DNA of 24,000 nucleotides from an uncultured Planctomycetales bacterium (GCA_964464755.1 CAYXGZ010000012.1:43755-67754); one strand, 5' to 3'; shown: positions 13,789 to 24,000, counted from the stretch's first letter. Made by a program: numbers and translations. Notes: a model not told the origin generated them from the letters alone.

Positions 13789-15593
13789 TGGGCTACGGGA
13801 TCGACATCGGCGCGGCCAACCTGAAGATCGTCCAGGTGCGCCGGACCCTCAACGGGTTCCGGATCGTCGGCGCGTCCCGCAAGCGGCTGCCCCGGGTCGA
13901 GAAGCCCGAGGAGACCAAGCAGAACGCGATCCGCGGCGTCCGCGAGGCGCTCGGGCTCCGCGAGGGCCAGGTCGCCGTCGTCGGCCTCAGCGGCCGCGAC
14001 ATCAACCTGAAGACCGTCCAGCAGGCCCAGATGAAGCCGATCCAGTACCGGACGATGATGGGCTACGAGGTGGACCAGGCGCGCGGCTCGGACAACCAGC
14101 TCTACGGCGACTTCTGCACGCTGCGCGAGCCCGACCCGTACTACCCGAACTACCTCGCGATGGTCGGCCTCGCGAAGGTCGCCTACGTGGACGACCGCCT
14201 CGCCATCGCGCAGTCCGCGGGCCTCGACGTCCGCGACGCCGTCCCCACGCCCTTCGCCATCTACACCGCGTACCACAACGCGTACGGCGACGAGAACGGG
14301 ACCGTGATGCTCCTCGACATCGGCGCCGAGACGACGGACCTCGTGCTCGTCCGCGGCGGCCGCCTCATCTTCTGCCGCAACGTCTCGACCGGCGCCCGCG
14401 TCTTCGACCAGAACATCTCCTCGATGGCGGGCCTGTCGTCCGACGACGCGGAGGCCCGGAAGATCCAGTACGGGACGCTCGGCGCGCCCGCGGAGGGCGC
14501 CGATCCGCGCGAGGAGGAGATCCGTCCCGCGATCCGGACCTCGGCGGGCCAGCTCGCCGGCGTCATCACGTCGAGCATCACGTTCGCCAAGGGGCAGCTC
14601 AACGACCGCGAGCTGACCGTGGACAAGATCTACGTGTCCGGCGGCGGCGCCCGCCTCAAGGGCCTGCCCGAGTACCTCCAGAGCTCGACGAAGATCGCCG
14701 TGGAGGTCCTCGACCCGTTCAAGAACTGCGAGTGGGGCTCCATCGGCGACAACCCGGACGCCAAGCAGCTGCCCAGCGACCTCGTGGCGGCGCTCGGCCT
14801 CGCGCAGATCTCGACGCAGTCCCGGGGCGGCTCGATCCTCTCGATCATCCCGGACCGCCTGAAGGTCCGCCGGAACTTCTTCCGCAGCGCGGTCTTCCTG
14901 ATCGCCGCGGGGGTCGTGCTGGCCGTGGGCGTCGCGGCGGCGACCGGCGTCGCCATCATGCGGCGCTCGGCGGCGGCGGCGGAGCTGGCGAAGTTCCAGG
15001 AGGAGACGAAGGCCGTCAGCGACCGGATCACGCAGCTCGACAAGCTCGAGGAGGAGCTGCGGGTCCTGATCGCCAAGCGGCGGCTGCTCGACAGCCACGT
15101 CGCGCCGGGCCGGGGCCTGCTGGAGACCGTGCTCAAGCTGCGCAAGACGCTTCCGGACGGGATCCACGTCCGGACGGTCGAGCTGGTCAACCTCGCGGAG
15201 GATCGCGCGGCGACGCCGGGCGGACCGCGGCGGCTCGTCTTCAGCTACCCGAACCGGGGCATCCTCGAGGGGACGGTGCCCCGGGGGAAGACAGAGTCGC
15301 CGAACGACCCCGACGTGCGCGTGCACCTGAGCGACGCGGCGGGCCACTCGGAGCCCGAGGTCTTCAGCAAGGGCGCGATGATCGGCGCGATCCCGGTGGA
15401 CGCGCCCTGGCTGGGCGTCCTGGTCAAGGGCGAGATCGACGACAACATCAAGGGCGGGCCGGGGACCGTGCTCGACGACCTGCGCCTGAACTTCACCGAT
15501 CCCCTGCGCGGCGTGTCCGCGGAGATCTTCCAGGAGGGCCCGGGCAACCGGCCCGGCTGGCAGACCTTCCGCATGGTGCTGCGGGGGGAATGA
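13788..15593 (+). CDS. PilM-PilN fusion protein (GspL-like architecture): actin-like ATPase-fold domain, linker, TM helix, coiled coil, periplasmic domain (601 aa)
   Basis: This is the C-terminal part of track ORF 11697..15593. The start ATG at 13788 overlaps the preceding TAA (TAATG). The N-terminus MGYGIDIGAANLKIVQVRR...VVGLSGRDINLK...LLDIGAETTDLVLV...IYVSGGGARLKGLPEYL is PilM-like. It is followed by ILSIIPDRLKVRRNFF (like the PilN INLLP...RR peptide) and a TM helix at 14877-14960. Then comes a coiled coil (AELAKFQEETKAVSDRITQLDKLEEELRVL) and about 190 further residues. Confidence 0.8.
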   Translation: MGYGIDIGAANLKIVQVRRTLNGFRIVGASRKRLPRVEKPEETKQNAIRGVREALGLREGQVAVVGLSGRDINLKTVQQAQMKPIQYRTMMGYEVDQARGSDNQLYGDFCTLREPDPYYPNYLAMVGLAKVAYVDDRLAIAQSAGLDVRDAVPTPFAIYTAYHNAYGDENGTVMLLDIGAETTDLVLVRGGRLIFCRNVSTGARVFDQNISSMAGLSSDDAEARKIQYGTLGAPAEGADPREEEIRPAIRTSAGQLAGVITSSITFAKGQLNDRELTVDKIYVSGGGARLKGLPEYLQSSTKIAVEVLDPFKNCEWGSIGDNPDAKQLPSDLVAALGLAQISTQSRGGSILSIIPDRLKVRRNFFRSAVFLIAAGVVLAVGVAAATGVAIMRRSAAAAELAKFQEETKAVSDRITQLDKLEEELRVLIAKRRLLDSHVAPGRGLLETVLKLRKTLPDGIHVRTVELVNLAEDRAATPGGPRRLVFSYPNRGILEGTVPRGKTESPNDPDVRVHLSDAAGHSEPEVFSKGAMIGAIPVDAPWLGVLVKGEIDDNIKGGPGTVLDDLRLNFTDPLRGVSAEIFQEGPGNRPGWQTFRMVLRGE

Positions 15594-19233: not shown

Positions 19234-19857
19234 ATGCGGCGCTCCCCGGGGTTCACGCTGATCGAGATCCTCGTCGTCATCGTCATCATCGGGATCCTCG
19301 CCTCGCTCGCGCTCGTCGGCGTCAACGCGGCCCTCAACAGCGCCAAGGTCAGCGCCACCGAGTCCATGCTCCGCACGCTCGAGGGGGCCTGCCACCAGTA
19401 CCGCACGCGCTGGGGCGACTACCCGCCCTCCACGCTCACCGAGTTCAACGTGCAGCTCTCCAACGAGGTCAACAACGGCGCCGAGTCGCTCTGCGCCTGC
19501 CTCGGCTCCACGCTGAAGGGCGGGTCGCTGCTCTCGTCGGTGAAGGATGACCAGTTCGTCAACATGGACCGCGACGCGGCCCCGCGCAACGTGACGACCT
19601 GGTTCTTCGGAGACACGCAGCTCCGGGAGGTCGCCGACGCCTATGCGCAGCCGATGACCTACCTCCACTGGAAGGACTACCGCCGCGCCCCGGTCCAGGT
19701 CCGGAAGTACTGGATGGCGGACGGGGGGCCGGAGCAGGTCGTGCAGGTGGAGGTCAGCGCCGCCACGAAGGCCTTCCAGCGCCAGGACTCCTTCCAGATG
19801 AGGTCCGCGGGCAAGGACGGGAAGCTCGGGACCCCCGACGACATCCAACTGCCGTAG
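19234..19857 (+). CDS. GspG-family major pseudopilin / type IV pilin-like protein with prepilin N-methylation signal (207 aa)
   Basis: Track ORF with SD GGGAGG 4 nt upstream. MRRSPG|FTLIEILVVIVIIGILASLAL shows G-1, F+1 and E+5. ...AKVSATESMLRTLEGACHQYRTRWGDYP resembles the GspG helix, and the C-terminal SAGKDGKLGTPDDI resembles the GspG SAGPDG..GT.DDI calcium-loop motif. Confidence 0.85.
   Translation: MRRSPGFTLIEILVVIVIIGILASLALVGVNAALNSAKVSATESMLRTLEGACHQYRTRWGDYPPSTLTEFNVQLSNEVNNGAESLCACLGSTLKGGSLLSSVKDDQFVNMDRDAAPRNVTTWFFGDTQLREVADAYAQPMTYLHWKDYRRAPVQVRKYWMADGGPEQVVQVEVSAATKAFQRQDSFQMRSAGKDGKLGTPDDIQLP
19253..19287 (+). repeat. Copy 1 of a 35-nt perfect direct repeat (pseudopilin signal-sequence region)
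   Basis: TCACGCTGATCGAGATCCTCGTCGTCATCGTCATC is identical, including all synonymous positions, to 19899-19933. Confidence 0.9.
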
Positions 19858-19867
19858 GGGAGACACG

Positions 19868-20845
19868 ATGGGCCGCGCCAGGCGCGCCGACGCGGGCGTC
19901 ACGCTGATCGAGATCCTCGTCGTCATCGTCATCTTCTCGATGCTGATGGGGCTGGGGGTCTCGGTCCTCCGCAACGCGAACAAGGACCTCGGCGTCCGGG
20001 CCGCGGCGGGCCGCGTCGTCGCGATGATCCGCGCCGCCCACGACCACGCCCGCGCCGAGAACAGCCCGGCCTGGGTGATCTTCACGATGCAGGAGCCCTC
20101 CGCGGGCGCCCTCACCAAGGAGACGGTGGGGATGTGGCACTGCGAGGAGGACGGCCGCGGCGCCTTCGGCCTCGACCCCAAGGTGACCGGCGCGGTCATC
20201 CAGCCCGGCCGCATCGGGATGGGCTACCGGATGCGCAAGCCCGGCGACTCCGTGGAGCTCGGCGAGATCCCGTTCCAGGCGAAGGACCAGGGCGTCGCGC
20301 TCGAGCTCTGGTTCTGGCGGGACGCCGGCGGCCAGAAGTCCACGATCGCCGCGGCGGGGAAGGACCTCGAGCTCCTCCTCGACGCCACCGGCCGCGTCAC
20401 GGCGCGGATCGGCGGGCTCAACCTCGGTTCCGGCGACGCGCTGCTGCCCCGCGAGAGCTGGATCCACGTCCAGCTCCTGCACAACGGGCGCCAGGCCAAG
20501 CTCTTCCTCAACGACGTGGAAGTCGCCTCCGTGAACGGCGGGGTGCAGTGGTCGGACAAGCCCGCGCCGATCCTCGTCGGCGGCGGGCGCGACGGCCTGG
20601 TGGGCATGGTCGACGAGATCCGCCTCAGCCTCATCGTCCGGCGGGACATCTACCGCCTGCCGGCCCAGGTCGAGTTCCAGTTCGCGCCCGGCACGGTCCC
20701 CGTCAACGACGAGGTGATCCTGGCCTTCGACTCGCTGGGGCGCCTGGACCCGGCCCGCCACCCCGGGCCGTTCTCCTTCAAGGTCAAGTCGCCCGCGGAC
20801 GAGAAGGAGATCGTCGTGACCCCCCAGGGGGCGGTCCGGCGCTGA
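19868..20845 (+). CDS. Minor pseudopilin (GspH-like N-terminus) fused to a LamG / Laminin_G_3-type jelly-roll domain (325 aa)
   Basis: Track ORF. MGRARRADAG|VTLIEILVVIVIFSMLMGLGV carries a prepilin signal with E+5 but V instead of F at +1. At about 20243-20629 the sequence reads VALELWFWRD...ESWIHVQLLHNGRQAKLFLNDVEVAS...LVGGGRDGLVGMVDEIRLS, the signature I associate with Laminin_G_3 domains. Confidence 0.8.
   Translation: MGRARRADAGVTLIEILVVIVIFSMLMGLGVSVLRNANKDLGVRAAAGRVVAMIRAAHDHARAENSPAWVIFTMQEPSAGALTKETVGMWHCEEDGRGAFGLDPKVTGAVIQPGRIGMGYRMRKPGDSVELGEIPFQAKDQGVALELWFWRDAGGQKSTIAAAGKDLELLLDATGRVTARIGGLNLGSGDALLPRESWIHVQLLHNGRQAKLFLNDVEVASVNGGVQWSDKPAPILVGGGRDGLVGMVDEIRLSLIVRRDIYRLPAQVEFQFAPGTVPVNDEVILAFDSLGRLDPARHPGPFSFKVKSPADEKEIVVTPQGAVRR
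19899..19933 (+). repeat. Copy 2 of the 35-nt perfect direct repeat
   Basis: Identical to 19253-19287. It encodes TLIEILVVIVI in both pseudopilin genes. Confidence 0.9.
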
Positions 20846-20864
20846 GGAATTTTCCCGGCCCGCG

Positions 20865-20893
20865 TTGACACTCCCCTCCGGGCGGCGTACAGT
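20865..20893 (+). promoter_or_regulatory. Internal sigma70-like promoter: TTGACA-17 nt-TACAGT
   Basis: A perfect -35 TTGACA at 20865-20870, an exactly 17-nt spacer, and TACAGT at 20888-20893. It lies in the only sizeable gap (139 nt) of the cluster, 92 nt upstream of ATG 20985. An imperfect hairpin CAGCCG-CT-CCGCG...CGCGG-A-CGGCTG at about 20928-20958 lies in the resulting leader. SD GGAGGG is at 20975-20980. Confidence 0.4.
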
Positions 20894-20984
20894 TGTTGAT
20901 GGAGCGGGTCCTCTTTTCCTGACCGAGCAGCCGCTCCGCGTCCGCCCGCGGACGGCTGTCCCGGAACGCCGCCTGGAGGGCTTG

Positions 20985-23900
20985 ATGCCTCGCACGTCCC
21001 GCCGATCCGGCCTCGCGCTCGTCCTCGTCCTCACCGTCGTCATGGCCCTCGCCATCATCGCGACCCCGTTCGTCCTCTCGATGATCGAGCAGGAGCGGAC
21101 CGCGGTCACCGGCCGGGCCTGGCAGCAGGCGTTCACGGGCGCCGAGGGCGTCCGCAATTTCGCGATCACCCGGGTCCTGGCGGGGACCGACGGGATCGAG
21201 CGCCACGGGAACCCCCCGGGGACCCCGTACCTCGACACGCGCTCCGAGACGTTCGTTGACCTGCGCGACGCGAGGCTGCGCAACGCCGGCGTGCTCGACG
21301 GCAAGGGCAACCTCTGGGGCGTCATCGTCCAGGACGAGCAGGGCAAGGTCAACTCGCTGTCGGCCCCCGGCCCGGTGCTCCAGAATCTCCGCCGCGTCGT
21401 CGATCCCCGGGTCGTCGACCCGAAGGACTACCTGACGATCTACTCGTCCCGGCCCGGCCGCTGGATCCATCCCCAGCGCATCCGCGACCTCGGGACGTTC
21501 ACGAACCAGATCGGGTCCATCACCGGGCTCCAGCTCGACAGCGTGGTCCACCTGGCCCAGGGGGCCAAGGTCCGGATCTCCAAGCCCGGCCTTCCGGCGA
21601 TCGAGGCCGAGGTCGTCCAGAACGGCCGCTTCTTCTTCGGGATCGAGGCCATTTCGACGTCGCCGTCGGTCGGGGTGAACTACGCGAACGGCCTGGTGGA
21701 AGTCGAGGCCCGCCACCCGGTGAACGTGAACACCGCGCGCCGGGAGACGCTGATCGCCATGCTCGAGGGCCTCGCGCTCGCGTGGCCCGCGACGATGCCG
21801 CAGGGGCAGAAGTCGGCCGTCCTGAGCCGCTCCGACGCGATGGACGTCGCCGACGCGATCCGGGACAAGGGCTTCCAGACCTGGGACGCCTTCGTGCAGG
21901 CGGTCCTGGGGACCCAGGTGGACGACCTCGCGAAGTGCGCCGTGATCCTCAACGCGGTCGACCCCACGAACTTCCTCCTGGCGACGGCGGGGGGGCAGGG
22001 GTCCGGCACGTTGCCGTTCTGCTTCACGTCCTGCGAGACGATCACGGTCCTCGCGCGCAGCTCGGTGAACAACCCCCAGGGCGTCCCGGTCTCCGGCGCG
22101 GGCTTCCGCGAGGTGATCGATTACGCGCCCGCGACGACGCTGACGCTGCACGTCGAGAACGAGTACGACTTCGACCGCTTCCTCGGGCCGCCCCGGTTCG
22201 TCGTCAACGGCAACTCGATCTCGCTGGGGCAGGACGCCGCGGTGACCATGCAGATGGCGGGCTGGCCGGGCGCCTACAACGGCTACCCCTTCGGCGCCCG
22301 GATCATGACGTTCCCGACGGCCATCGCCTCGGGGCAGCCGGCCGACATGACCCTGAAGCCCCAGCCCGCGCAGACGGAGAACTACCTCTCGATGCGCACG
22401 GACCGCGACGTCCGCGGCGGCGGGCAGTGGATCAACAACTTCAACCACTTCGACGCCGAGGTCGACGGGCTCAAGCTCGTGAACGCCGTCCACTCGCCGG
22501 GGACCTGGGACACGGTCTTCAGCCGGAACCCGAACCAGTTCGGGCCGGACCCGACGCAGAACTTCCCCGACGTCTCCGCGGGCGGGACCGAGTTCTGGAT
22601 CCGCTTCGACGGGTCGGTCCCCGCGGCGCTGAAGCTCTTCGACATCCGGGAGGGGGACAAGAGCAACCGGATCTCCCTCGAGATCGAGGCCAAGGACATC
22701 GTCTACCGGATCACGGACGGCACGGTCGGCCGGCAGAACGCGCAGAACTTCGTGCTCGACAAGGGCTGGTCGGAGATCCGGGCCGTCCACCCCTTCGTGG
22801 CCGACACGTGGTACCACATCGCCATCTACTGGAAGGGCACGCGGTACGGGCACATGCTGCTGATGATCGACGGGTTCGTGCCGACCGGAGCGAAGTGGCG
22901 CTGCGTGGACGACGAGTCGCTGACCGACTGCTCGACGGAGCTGATCAACCCGCTCACGATCCCGACCGATCCGAACGACCTCAACCAGACCTACATCTCG
23001 CTCCCGATGAAGAACACGGGCTGGCTGCAGAAGCCCGCCTCGTGGCCCTCCACGGAACCGTTCATCGTCCCGCTCCTGATCGGGGCGGAGGTCTTCCACT
23101 ACGAGCCCGACACGGGGATGGCGGCCCGGGGCCAGCGGGCGACCGCGTTCCAGGACCACGTCGCCGGGGCCAAGGTCACCCTCTTCGGCTACGCCAGCCG
23201 GATCCGGGACCTGGACGTGAACATCGACTACGGAGACGGCGAGCCGCCCGTCCAGATGCGCTTCGACTTCCTCCCGCGTGCCCAGGCGGTCACGACGCGG
23301 CAGTTCGGGGCGATGATGACGGCCAGCATCAACGGGCCGGACGACATCGACGCCGACGGGATGGCGACCGAGCTCGCGATGGCGACGACGACGGGCATCA
23401 AGTTCACGACGAACGACACGGCCGCCTGGCCGCAGCCGGGGTTCATCCGGATCCAGAACGAGGCGATCTACTACGAGAAGATCACGGTCCAGGACGCGAC
23501 CAACGGGACCTTCGACAACTGCACCCGGGGGGCGGAGGCCACGATAGCCGCGGACCATCCGGCGGGCTCCATGATCGAGATGTGGGGCATCGCCGTCGAC
23601 ATGCTGGACGCCAACATCCCGCTCAACACGGCCCTCATGATCCAGGACGAGCTGTTCTGGCCGGTCCGGACCACGACGAACACCACCGACCCCAGCCAGA
23701 TCAACTTCTGGGTCGGGGTCGTGGTGAACCCGGGGATGTCGAACGCCATCGCCCGCCCGCTGCGCCGGGACCCGGTGGCGGGGCCGCAGGTGCCGCACCC
23801 CGCCGGGGAGCGCATCATCCCGGGCTTCGCGATCCGGGAATCGGACCCCGGCCAGTTCCGCTGGAACGCCGCCCGGGGCGACCTGGTCACGGTCGTCGAC

Positions 23901-24000
23901 TCCAACGACCGCAAGGAGACCCACCAGGTCGGGGCCGTGCGGAACCAGCCGAACCCGCCGGACACCGTGACCCCCAACAACCCGTCGGTCGTCTTCAACG
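20985..24000 (+). CDS. Giant GspK-like minor pseudopilin (more than 1005 aa, runs off the right edge) with internal LamG-type domain
   Basis: Absent from the track because it has no stop in the window; translated by hand in the frame of ATG 20985, with an in-frame TGA upstream at 20898. MPRTSRRSGLALVLVLTVVMALAIIATPF is a pilin-like hydrophobic N-terminus lacking Glu+5, as in GspK. VIVQDEQGKVNSLS (21327-21359) and HPVNVNTARRETLIAMLEGL (about 21717-21773) match the GspK DE.GK.NLN and NxNTA helix-hairpin-helix motifs. At about 22440-22900 the sequence reads GTEFWIRFDG...DTWYHIAIYWKGTRYGHMLLMIDGF, which is LamG-like. The frame is still open at 24000. Confidence 0.8.
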   Translation, partial: MPRTSRRSGLALVLVLTVVMALAIIATPFVLSMIEQERTAVTGRAWQQAFTGAEGVRNFAITRVLAGTDGIERHGNPPGTPYLDTRSETFVDLRDARLRNAGVLDGKGNLWGVIVQDEQGKVNSLSAPGPVLQNLRRVVDPRVVDPKDYLTIYSSRPGRWIHPQRIRDLGTFTNQIGSITGLQLDSVVHLAQGAKVRISKPGLPAIEAEVVQNGRFFFGIEAISTSPSVGVNYANGLVEVEARHPVNVNTARRETLIAMLEGLALAWPATMPQGQKSAVLSRSDAMDVADAIRDKGFQTWDAFVQAVLGTQVDDLAKCAVILNAVDPTNFLLATAGGQGSGTLPFCFTSCETITVLARSSVNNPQGVPVSGAGFREVIDYAPATTLTLHVENEYDFDRFLGPPRFVVNGNSISLGQDAAVTMQMAGWPGAYNGYPFGARIMTFPTAIASGQPADMTLKPQPAQTENYLSMRTDRDVRGGGQWINNFNHFDAEVDGLKLVNAVHSPGTWDTVFSRNPNQFGPDPTQNFPDVSAGGTEFWIRFDGSVPAALKLFDIREGDKSNRISLEIEAKDIVYRITDGTVGRQNAQNFVLDKGWSEIRAVHPFVADTWYHIAIYWKGTRYGHMLLMIDGFVPTGAKWRCVDDESLTDCSTELINPLTIPTDPNDLNQTYISLPMKNTGWLQKPASWPSTEPFIVPLLIGAEVFHYEPDTGMAARGQRATAFQDHVAGAKVTLFGYASRIRDLDVNIDYGDGEPPVQMRFDFLPRAQAVTTRQFGAMMTASINGPDDIDADGMATELAMATTTGIKFTTNDTAAWPQPGFIRIQNEAIYYEKITVQDATNGTFDNCTRGAEATIAADHPAGSMIEMWGIAVDMLDANIPLNTALMIQDELFWPVRTTTNTTDPSQINFWVGVVVNPGMSNAIARPLRRDPVAGPQVPHPAGERIIPGFAIRESDPGQFRWNAARGDLVTVVDSNDRKETHQVGAVRNQPNPPDTVTPNNPSVVFN

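Follow-up and report, generated by a model that had tools for sequence, protein, structure and literature searches.

The locus described here raises the question of what is served by a protein that begins like GspK, the K-type minor pseudopilin, and then runs on for almost a thousand further residues. Whether a type IV filament is assembled, and with what its tip makes contact, is decided by its cap pilins. The gene starts at position 20985 of a 24,000-nucleotide stretch of DNA (the window) from an uncultured Planctomycetales bacterium (GCA_964464755.1, CAYXGZ010000012.1:43755-67754); positions are counted from the first nucleotide of the window and are continued as window equivalents beyond its end. 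An earlier note, made from the sequence of the window alone, had described the product as a giant GspK-like tip protein with a laminin G-like (LamG) insert. Below, we describe evidence that the giant is probably a minor pseudopilin of the apical, K type (GspK/PilX family), serving a type IV filament machine, with a ligand-binding head built into the same polypeptide.

A complete gene with a GspK-like head

The giant is a real, complete and conserved gene of 1,380 amino acids (aa). It occupies 20985-24000 of the window (aa 1-1005) and ends at window-equivalent 25127, as judged from codon-position GC, closure of the open reading frame (ORF) and homologs. The note had reported a product of more than 1005 aa that was incomplete; the size stands, and the incompleteness is that of the window edge only, the ORF closing 1,127 nt past it on the same contig (C12). 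The in-frame stop or frameshift of which the note had warned does not occur anywhere in the full ORF on the contig, up to 25127. The window has a GC content of about 70% and long ORFs in several frames. Codon-position GC settles the coding frame of the giant as the plus-strand ORF at 20865-23999, in which GC at third positions (GC3) is 0.96-1.00 over 21001-24000, that at first positions (GC1) about 0.65 and that at second positions (GC2) about 0.45; the antisense ORF at 20784-23924 (1,046 aa) is a high-GC shadow frame. A start at ATG 20985, 4 nt behind a Shine-Dalgarno-like GGAGGG read from the sequence at 20975-20980, gives a short basic leader, as in the N-termini of homologs. Full-length homologs (n = 40; 1,290-1,420 aa), all from metagenome-assembled genomes of Planctomycetota and all named 'hypothetical' or without a name, align with the giant from end to end at 34-49% identity. 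Conservation varies little along the protein, falling at aa 401-440, 641-680 and 1081-1120, in what we take to be linkers.

The first 395 or so residues (20985-22169) form the GspK-like head, delimited by hhalign, AlphaFold2 (AF2) and the NF037980 model: a helix, beta strands, a helix-hairpin-helix alpha-domain and a beta-hairpin (aa 352-379). It opens at 20985-21176 with a class III-like leader, MPRTSRRSG|LALVL, and a long N-terminal helix (aa 8-64), recognised from the sequence, AF2 and the PilX_N and GspK profiles. The class III signal-like character lies in a basic leader ending in Gly and followed by about 20 hydrophobic residues (MPRTSRRSG|LALVLVLTVVMALAIIATPF), and it is kept in both the family and the wider superfamily discussed below. 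The note had called this a pilin-like hydrophobic N-terminus without Glu+5, correctly: mature position +5 is Leu. All four adjacent prepilins carry Glu+5, in the cleavage-site motifs G|FTLIE, G|VTLIE, G|MTLIE and G|FTLLE. A missing Glu5 is an accepted sign of the distal cap subunit (PMC13759059), and it is on this ground that we place the giant at the distal tip.

Two further motifs link the head with GspK. DEQGKVNSL (aa 117-125), a GspK-type strand motif, had been located at 21327-21359; it does end at 21359, and its true start is 21333. In the family alignment D117 and E118 are invariant and Q119, K121 and N123 nearly so. The NxNTA helix-hairpin-helix motif of the GspK alpha-domain, PVNVNTARRETLIAMLEGL (aa 245-263), lies exactly where it had been placed, at 21717-21773; it corresponds to positions 1-20 of PF03934 and aligns by hhalign with iNiNTAp.EVL of a canonical GspK profile, which was made from 11 Planctomycetota genes of 300-350 aa found via NF037980. 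Against this profile the N-terminal alignment of the giant family gives a probability of 98.7% and an E-value (E) of 2.6e-16, query positions 2-302 matching template positions 7-256 of 331. The part of GspK so covered comprises the helix, the first strands and the NxNTA helix-hairpin-helix alpha-domain, and DEQGKVNSL falls inside it. AF2 models aa 8-385 at a predicted local distance difference test score (pLDDT) of about 85-95, as a 57-residue helix (aa 8-64, pLDDT about 80-90) and an alpha/beta body with helices at 253-325 and the hairpin at 352-379. Homology of aa 1 to about 390 to GspK, in divergent form, is supported by these comparisons of sequence profiles.

Several observations weigh against the identification. 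The giant scores 22.4 bits (E 7e-5) with NF037980, under the 130-bit cut-off, and 11.3 bits (E 0.45) with PF03934, under the 24.2-bit cut-off; the GspK match that the earlier note expected of 21300-21800 is thus obtained by profile-profile comparison and not by the curated cut-offs. PilX_N gives E 0.46. Across the family the GspK signal is steady, which speaks for the identification: 27 of 29 members match NF037980 (best E 1e-10), 10 match PF03934 and five match PilX_N. Searches of PDB sequences with phmmer and with hmmsearch of the family profile returned chance matches only and no GspK, and Foldseek of the PDB with the N-terminal 700-residue two-domain model, a poor query for the head, returned LamG-type structures only and no GspK chain. 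Among the partner genes described below, the one of 370 aa is called J-type from its prepilin N-terminus, size and position only. Finally, the cluster contains no ATPase, platform or secretin gene, and GspC/D/E/F/L/M are not adjacent.

The body beyond the head

The note had also predicted a beta-rich continuation of at least 700 residues. There are in fact about 985 extra residues, and the AF2 model of aa 641-1380 is all-beta (pLDDT 86.5; predicted template modelling score 0.77). The first module is a LamG/ConA-like beta-sandwich at aa 530-645 (22572-22919), identified by Laminin_G_3, AF2 and Foldseek, in which the stretch TEFWIRFDG starts at 22587. Laminin_G_3 matches aa 534-630 with 18.7 bits (E 2e-3), below its gathering score of 27.6 bits, and matches 17 of the 29 family members at E<=0.1 (best E 1.3e-5). 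The AF2 strands of the domain (aa 533-642) make a jelly-roll beta-sandwich, the top Foldseek matches in the PDB being PTX3, perlecan LG3, agrin G2 and laminin LG4-5, with a probability of 0.97-1.0 but E only about 1e-2; LamG/pentraxin/LNS domains are the only Foldseek neighbours of the N-terminal model. The LamG-like module that had been proposed for about 22440-22900 is therefore present, by Laminin_G_3 and Foldseek alike, within other boundaries. It accounts for about 115 of the 985 or so extra residues.

Behind it lies an array of five repeats spanning aa 697-1232. The unit reads h-h-I-x-x-E-h-h-x-[YF], then 25-45 aa, then R-G-x-x-[GA]-T-x(4)-H-x-x-G-x-x-[VI], and a regular-expression scan finds its RG..GT....H motif at aa 715, 848, 927, 1129 and 1216, the first three repeats lying at 23073-23816 and the last two motifs beyond the window. 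Short matches of family members to Pfam Rcc01698_C, the C-terminus of a gene transfer agent (GTA)/phage tail protein, fall on this motif. They span only about 20 residues of it, and for that reason membership of Rcc01698_C and homology to GTA were dropped, and no GTA or phage homology is claimed beyond a likeness at the level of domains. The RG..GT....H..G..V unit may be an undescribed small beta-domain common to phage tail proteins and these pilus tips.

A Foldseek search of the PDB with the C-terminal model gave nothing significant. Against BFVD, a set of predicted viral structures, it gave 37 matches at E<=1e-3 (best 2.6e-8, probability 1.0), and those with names are all large tailed-phage tip, tail, fibre or baseplate proteins. 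The TM-scores of these phage matches are low (0.1-0.18), which counts against making much of them. The comparison of models suggests that the beta array resembles phage receptor-binding-type domains, domain by domain; homology of whole proteins is not read from BFVD.

The last 280 or so residues are a conserved C-terminal domain. An exhaustive search with aa 1101-1380 gave 354 clusters at 50% identity, 159 of them at E<=1e-10, and each of the matches listed runs to the very C-terminus. Among the superfamily representatives of at least 1,200 aa (n = 79), 73 have a K-type N-terminal helix and 58 have NxNTA. On these sequence counts the domain defines a superfamily in which it is attached, with few exceptions, to a GspK-like head. 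The spread of both ends across the phylum can be followed separately. The GspK model matches in 114 of 121 sampled genomes, which contribute canonical genes of about 320-400 aa and dozens of frames of 1,000-1,800 aa; the latter match by their N-terminal part only. The non-head part (aa 401-1380) matches in 122 of 401 phylum genomes. It does so at full length in all six genomes of the same family and in most of the class; elsewhere only the last 280 aa or so match, within frames of 1,300-2,300 aa, several of which are the frames that match GspK at the N-terminus. The body of the giant, its C-terminal domain, its tail and its five-repeat array are covered by no curated family.

How the pilin domain may be closed

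K-type pilins need a final beta-strand, which GspK and CpaL supply in cis and PilY1/PilC/MshQ in trans, and CpaL's far C-terminal end is predicted to fold back onto its N-terminal pilin domain (PMC13533445). Where, then, does the giant find its last strand? Canonical GspKs of Planctomycetota end with the hairpin, a short loop and h-x-h-[FY]-W-K-E-E. The giant ends ..NRVLFHEER, and the pattern ..V-h-x-[HR]-E plus 2-5 residues stands at the end of all 29 family members and of 16 distant superfamily members. With a position-specific scoring matrix derived from the end strands of the canonical GspKs of other genomes, the tail of the giant ranks 2 of the 5,174 ORF C-termini of its genome; the other top-scoring C-termini belong to shadow frames or unrelated proteins. 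In a chimera test, in which the hairpin is joined to a 14-residue segment, the tail ranks 3 of 329 and the segment immediately after the hairpin about 300 of 329. With head and tail joined in a chimera, the local hhalign alignment ends at template column 314 instead of 255, and the global score is 106.2 as against 95.6, 60 controls giving 96.0 +/- 1.6. In the AF2 model of the C-terminal part only, the invariant tail is unpacked and of low pLDDT, and in the N-terminal model aa 386-411 have pLDDT <50.

On balance, these sequence comparisons incline us to suppose that the body of the giant is inserted before the last strand, and that its last nine residues fold back to close the GspK sheet. The body would then sit between the last two strands, an arrangement already reported for cyanobacterial PilX/HpsA, ComZ and CpaL. 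Two results count on the other side. An internal segment, aa 496-510, ties with the tail in both chimera tests, in which the absolute scores are small, and hhalign found no place on the giant for GspK's closing strands (E 0.9). Because that segment scores as well as the tail, the insert topology is something we infer.

There is a serious, if distinctly less probable, alternative that keeps the same K-type tip identity. The head might be closed by an internal strand, either just after the hairpin or at aa ~496-510, with the remaining 900 or so residues a plain C-terminal extension and the tail put to some other use, for instance binding a partner pilin in trans or steadying the C-terminal domain. 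The performance of segment 496-510 fits such an arrangement, as does a short strand that AF2 places near aa 389-390, and most described modular pilins, such as PilB and PilC of Streptococcus sanguinis, are C-terminal grafts (PMC8179133). Set against this, the segment that follows the hairpin ranks near the bottom of the chimera series and is modelled at very low confidence, whereas it is the tail that resembles the canonical GspK end; moreover, the tail is pinned at the C-terminus throughout the superfamily and is left unpacked by AF2.

The prepilin cassette and its surroundings

All genes from about 11.6 kb onward are on the plus strand, as are all the features of the window described here unless stated to be antisense. 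They include a protein of 733 aa with an FHA domain, a PilM-like protein of 597 aa (13800-15593; PilM_2, and Amuc_1101 family NF045709 at E 5e-38), a gene of 264 aa without assignment and a 941-aa protein with TPR repeats. As the best match of the PilM-like protein is the Amuc_1101 family PilM-like pilus complex protein of Akkermansia, we tie the cluster to pilus loci of the Planctomycetota-Verrucomicrobiota-Chlamydiota (PVC) type. The protein is about 250 residues longer than PilM.

Five genes make up the prepilin cassette proper. A GspG/FimT-like prepilin of 207 aa (19234-19857; MRRSPG|FTLIE) matches N_methyl (E 9.5e-9), T2SSG and TIGR01710 (E 8e-13). It is followed by a prepilin of 325 aa in the GspH/FimU position (19868-20845; ..DAG|VTLIE), which matches N_methyl (E 2e-6) and gspH (E 3e-7) and has a LamG domain of its own (Laminin_G_3, E 4e-9, over the Pfam threshold), so that two adjoining filament subunits bear LamG-type sandwiches. 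The giant, from 20985, lies between this gene and a 370-aa prepilin in the J/PilW position, whose start overlaps the stop of the giant by 14 nt. A 4-nt overlap leads on to a prepilin of 128 aa that is I/PilV-like (PilV E 4e-8, GspI E 2e-6). The GspI/GspJ-like genes for which the earlier note had advised looking downstream are therefore there, with overlapping stop and start codons; searches of the PDB with these two partners gave no match. A gene of 187 aa without assignment comes next, and then the housekeeping genes ksgA, dnaG and rpoD.

The nearest relative keeps the whole gene arrangement, and a relative at 35% identity keeps the giant, the two downstream genes, an unannotated upstream gene and ksgA-dnaG-rpoD. 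At six distant superfamily loci, prepilins of about 365-425 aa and about 130-155 aa come after the giant, and at most of them prepilins of about 205 aa and about 320-330 aa come before it; three of the six have an ORF of about 950-1,050 aa in the slot of the TPR protein. The slot of the 325-aa gene is filled by a prepilin of about 320-330 aa in three distant cassettes (loci L064-L066). The five-gene prepilin cassette is conserved across Planctomycetota.

Two minor features of the locus may be recorded. The cassette lies directly upstream of ksgA-dnaG-rpoD (window-equivalent 27210-31091), an order kept down to 35% identity even with the PilM and TPR genes replaced; so stable a link of a pilus-tip cassette to core housekeeping genes is unusual. 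The 139-nt gap before the giant is the only real intergenic gap of the cluster, and it contains TTGACA-17 nt-TACAGT at 20865-20893, just upstream of the Shine-Dalgarno-like sequence.

Elsewhere in the genome, on other contigs, there are more than 20 T2SSE matches, six secretins and a prepilin peptidase. PilY1 (PF05567) has no match at E<=0.1 in this genome, whose completeness is 88%. The giant is single-copy and without paralogs in its own genome, which also encodes one canonical GspK, of 355 aa and 133 bits (over the cut-off), at contig C34:30178-31038. The latter has an atypically long Pro-rich C-terminal tail without the W-K-E-E found in six of ten other canonical Planctomycetota GspKs.

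Proposed role and its alternatives

If the giant is a K-type tip subunit, as we think probable, its assembly might proceed as follows. From what is known of the family, the leader would be cleaved by the prepilin peptidase encoded elsewhere in the genome, and the GspK-like head would join the 370-aa and 128-aa subunits in an I-J-K-type priming complex capping the fibre. The remaining 985 or so residues would then stand on the distal face as a ligand-binding head made up of the LamG-like sandwich, an array of five beta-domains and the 280-aa C-terminal domain, an assignment drawn from their folds. Also judging from folds, the ligand would most likely be a glycan, given LamG domains in both the giant and the adjacent pilin and domains like those of phage receptor-binding proteins. 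The chain would finally return to the pilin domain with ..NRVLFHEER as closing beta-strand, and in this way could couple correct folding of the distal head to licensing of filament assembly. By analogy, an adhesin role like that of PilY1 is plausible for the giant.

A rather unlikely alternative to the filament tip is that the giant caps a short periplasmic pseudopilus of type II secretion, its body acting in the periplasm and not as a surface adhesin, for instance by selecting or pushing polysaccharide or exoproteins through a secretin. The best profile matches of the cluster are to GspK, GspG, GspH and GspI of type II secretion, the genome has its six secretins and many GspE-type ATPases, and cyanobacterial HpsA-type proteins have been linked to polysaccharide secretion (PMC13759059). 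In contrast, the cluster contains a PilM-type protein (Amuc_1101 family, PilM_2) in place of GspL, and none of GspC/D/E/F; the genome has, besides the giant, the canonical 355-aa GspK on contig C34, over the cut-off; and a tip body of about 110 kDa beside a second, LamG-bearing pilin would suit display more than the action of a piston.

It is very unlikely that the giant belongs to no filament at all and that its GspK-like N-terminus is the uncleaved membrane anchor of a periplasmic or envelope scaffold. The sub-threshold scores with curated pilin models and the absence of motor genes nearby would fit such a scaffold, but the homology extends beyond the helix over about 300 residues of the GspK body, the giant is embedded among four true prepilin genes, and the lack of Glu+5 in the giant, when every neighbour has it, is the signature of a tip subunit (PMC13759059). 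The least tenable view is that the giant is an artefact, either a shadow ORF of the kind that at 70% GC gives several long frames, including the antisense one of 1,046 aa, or two genes joined by an assembly or frameshift error; it is effectively refuted by a GC3 of 0.97 in the giant's frame only and by 40 independent homologs conserved over their full length, and AF2 is confident for both halves of the protein.

Relation to known tip proteins

GspK/XcpX (NF037980, PF03934), the K subunit of the GspI-J-K tip complex (PMC8179133), resembles the giant in its Gly-ending leader, its helix without Glu+5, the D-E-Q-G-K strand motif, the NxNTA alpha-domain and prepilin neighbours in the I, J, G and H positions. 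The giant differs in being about fourfold larger, with some 985 residues between the hairpin and the C-terminal tail, in falling under the curated cut-offs, in having no adjacent GspC/D/E/F/L/M and in sharing its genome with a separate canonical GspK.

A parallel in design is the enlarged PilX of cyanobacteria (PilX-EPS: Synechocystis PilA12, Nostoc HpsA), encoded in the pilA9-12/hpsA-D operon, in which a bulky module is set before the last beta-strand. These proteins reach sizes of more than 1,280 aa, have been proposed by their authors as polysaccharide tip adhesins, and occur where no PilY1 is present (PMC13759059). They share with the giant the K-type cap pilin, its size, operon partners of similar sizes (there 300, 158 and 360 aa), a FimT-like pilin with an extra domain and the absence of PilY1; the cyanobacterial module is, however, a beta-solenoid, whereas that of the giant consists of LamG and small beta domains, and gene order and phylum differ. 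The HpsA/PilX-EPS model itself (NF038301, 1,503 positions, cut-off 400 bits) is without a hit in the genome at E<=10.

CpaL/TadG of Tad pili and ComZ of Thermus are also large minor-pilin-like tip subunits (PMC13533445; PMC8179133). The C-terminal fold-back predicted for CpaL goes with a middle region that is partly dispensable (PMC13533445). No sequence relation of CpaL or ComZ to the giant was detected; they are about half its size and have other middle domains, and for the giant the fold-back is a deduction only. The design, in which a cap pilin has grown large and carries its own binding module in place of PilY1, is already known from cyanobacterial PilX/HpsA, Thermus ComZ and Tad CpaL, and it comes under the concept of the modular pilin as well. 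PilY1/PilC/MshQ are large binding proteins displayed at the tip too, with an extreme C-terminal peptide essential for the licensing of assembly (PMC13533445); in contrast to the giant they are not pilins, dock in trans on small PilK/PilX and have the PF05567 beta-propeller. Membership of PilY1/PilC was rejected for the giant, PF05567 being without a match in the genome and the pilin head of the giant being missing from PilY1.

Modular pilins such as S. sanguinis PilC (with a ConA-like lectin) and PilB (with vWA) likewise combine a pilin and a binding module, and N_methyl plus PF13385 (Laminin_G_3) is a common architecture among them (PMC8179133). The upstream 325-aa gene has exactly this architecture. 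Modular pilins of the S. sanguinis type bear Glu5, are shorter than 900 residues and carry a simple C-terminal graft; the giant is a cap without Glu5 and with a multi-domain body.

Within the PVC group, the Verru_Chthon cassette A-D (TIGR02600, TIGR02598, TIGR02599, TIGR02596) also comprises a protein of about 1,300 aa with a PilX-like N-terminus and three prepilin-type proteins. The neighbours of the giant weakly match Verru_Chthon D, C and B, with matching model lengths. Verru_Chthon A (TIGR02600, 1,296 positions, cut-off 332 bits) has no match to the giant at E<=10, and it matches only the N-terminal 60 or so residues of six other giant ORFs in the genome. Among the papers searched, none describes the planctomycete giants or mentions the Verru_Chthon cassette. 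What the present analysis adds, from the sequences, is a superfamily recognised by its head and tail domain, a set of conserved gene sizes in the cassette, and quantitative though indirect support for fold-back of the terminal strand.

Implications and other giants of the genome

About 30% of the sampled Planctomycetota genomes have a probable cap subunit with some 110 kDa of putative binding domains, in the same five-gene cassette throughout, and such giants are a large unannotated part of envelope biology in a phylum noted for attaching to surfaces and using polysaccharides. The family, which is deeply diverged, allows an independent test of the recent proposal that assembly of the tip complex is licensed by a terminal beta-strand, and of whether bulky modules sit before that strand. 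The 280-aa C-terminal domain with its tail and the RG..GT....H array might be set up as new domains, and the annotation of several hundred 'hypothetical' giants would gain by it.

A more specific role can be imagined, and we regard it as a long shot. The cassette might build the tips of retractile fibres on the crateriform structures of planctomycetes, the distal head capturing high-molecular-weight polysaccharide and retraction hauling it into the enlarged periplasm. The idea draws on a cassette that is phylum-wide, single-copy and linked to housekeeping genes. The planctomycete route of polysaccharide uptake was left uncharacterised by Boedeker et al. 2017 (PMC5394234); were the idea true, the cassette would be that route, and the C-terminal strand would act as a folding checkpoint that licenses assembly after the whole head has been made.

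The genome also contains a second family of giants with GspK-like heads. It has five paralogs, of 1,403, 1,446, 1,231, 1,112 and 991 aa (contigs C25, C18, C36, C5 and C38), at 30-49% mutual identity, and what these have in common with the giant described above is confined to the head. TIGR02600 matches their first 60 or so residues. Four of the five share a terminal DDVT-h-Y..G..Y-h-x-Y tail.

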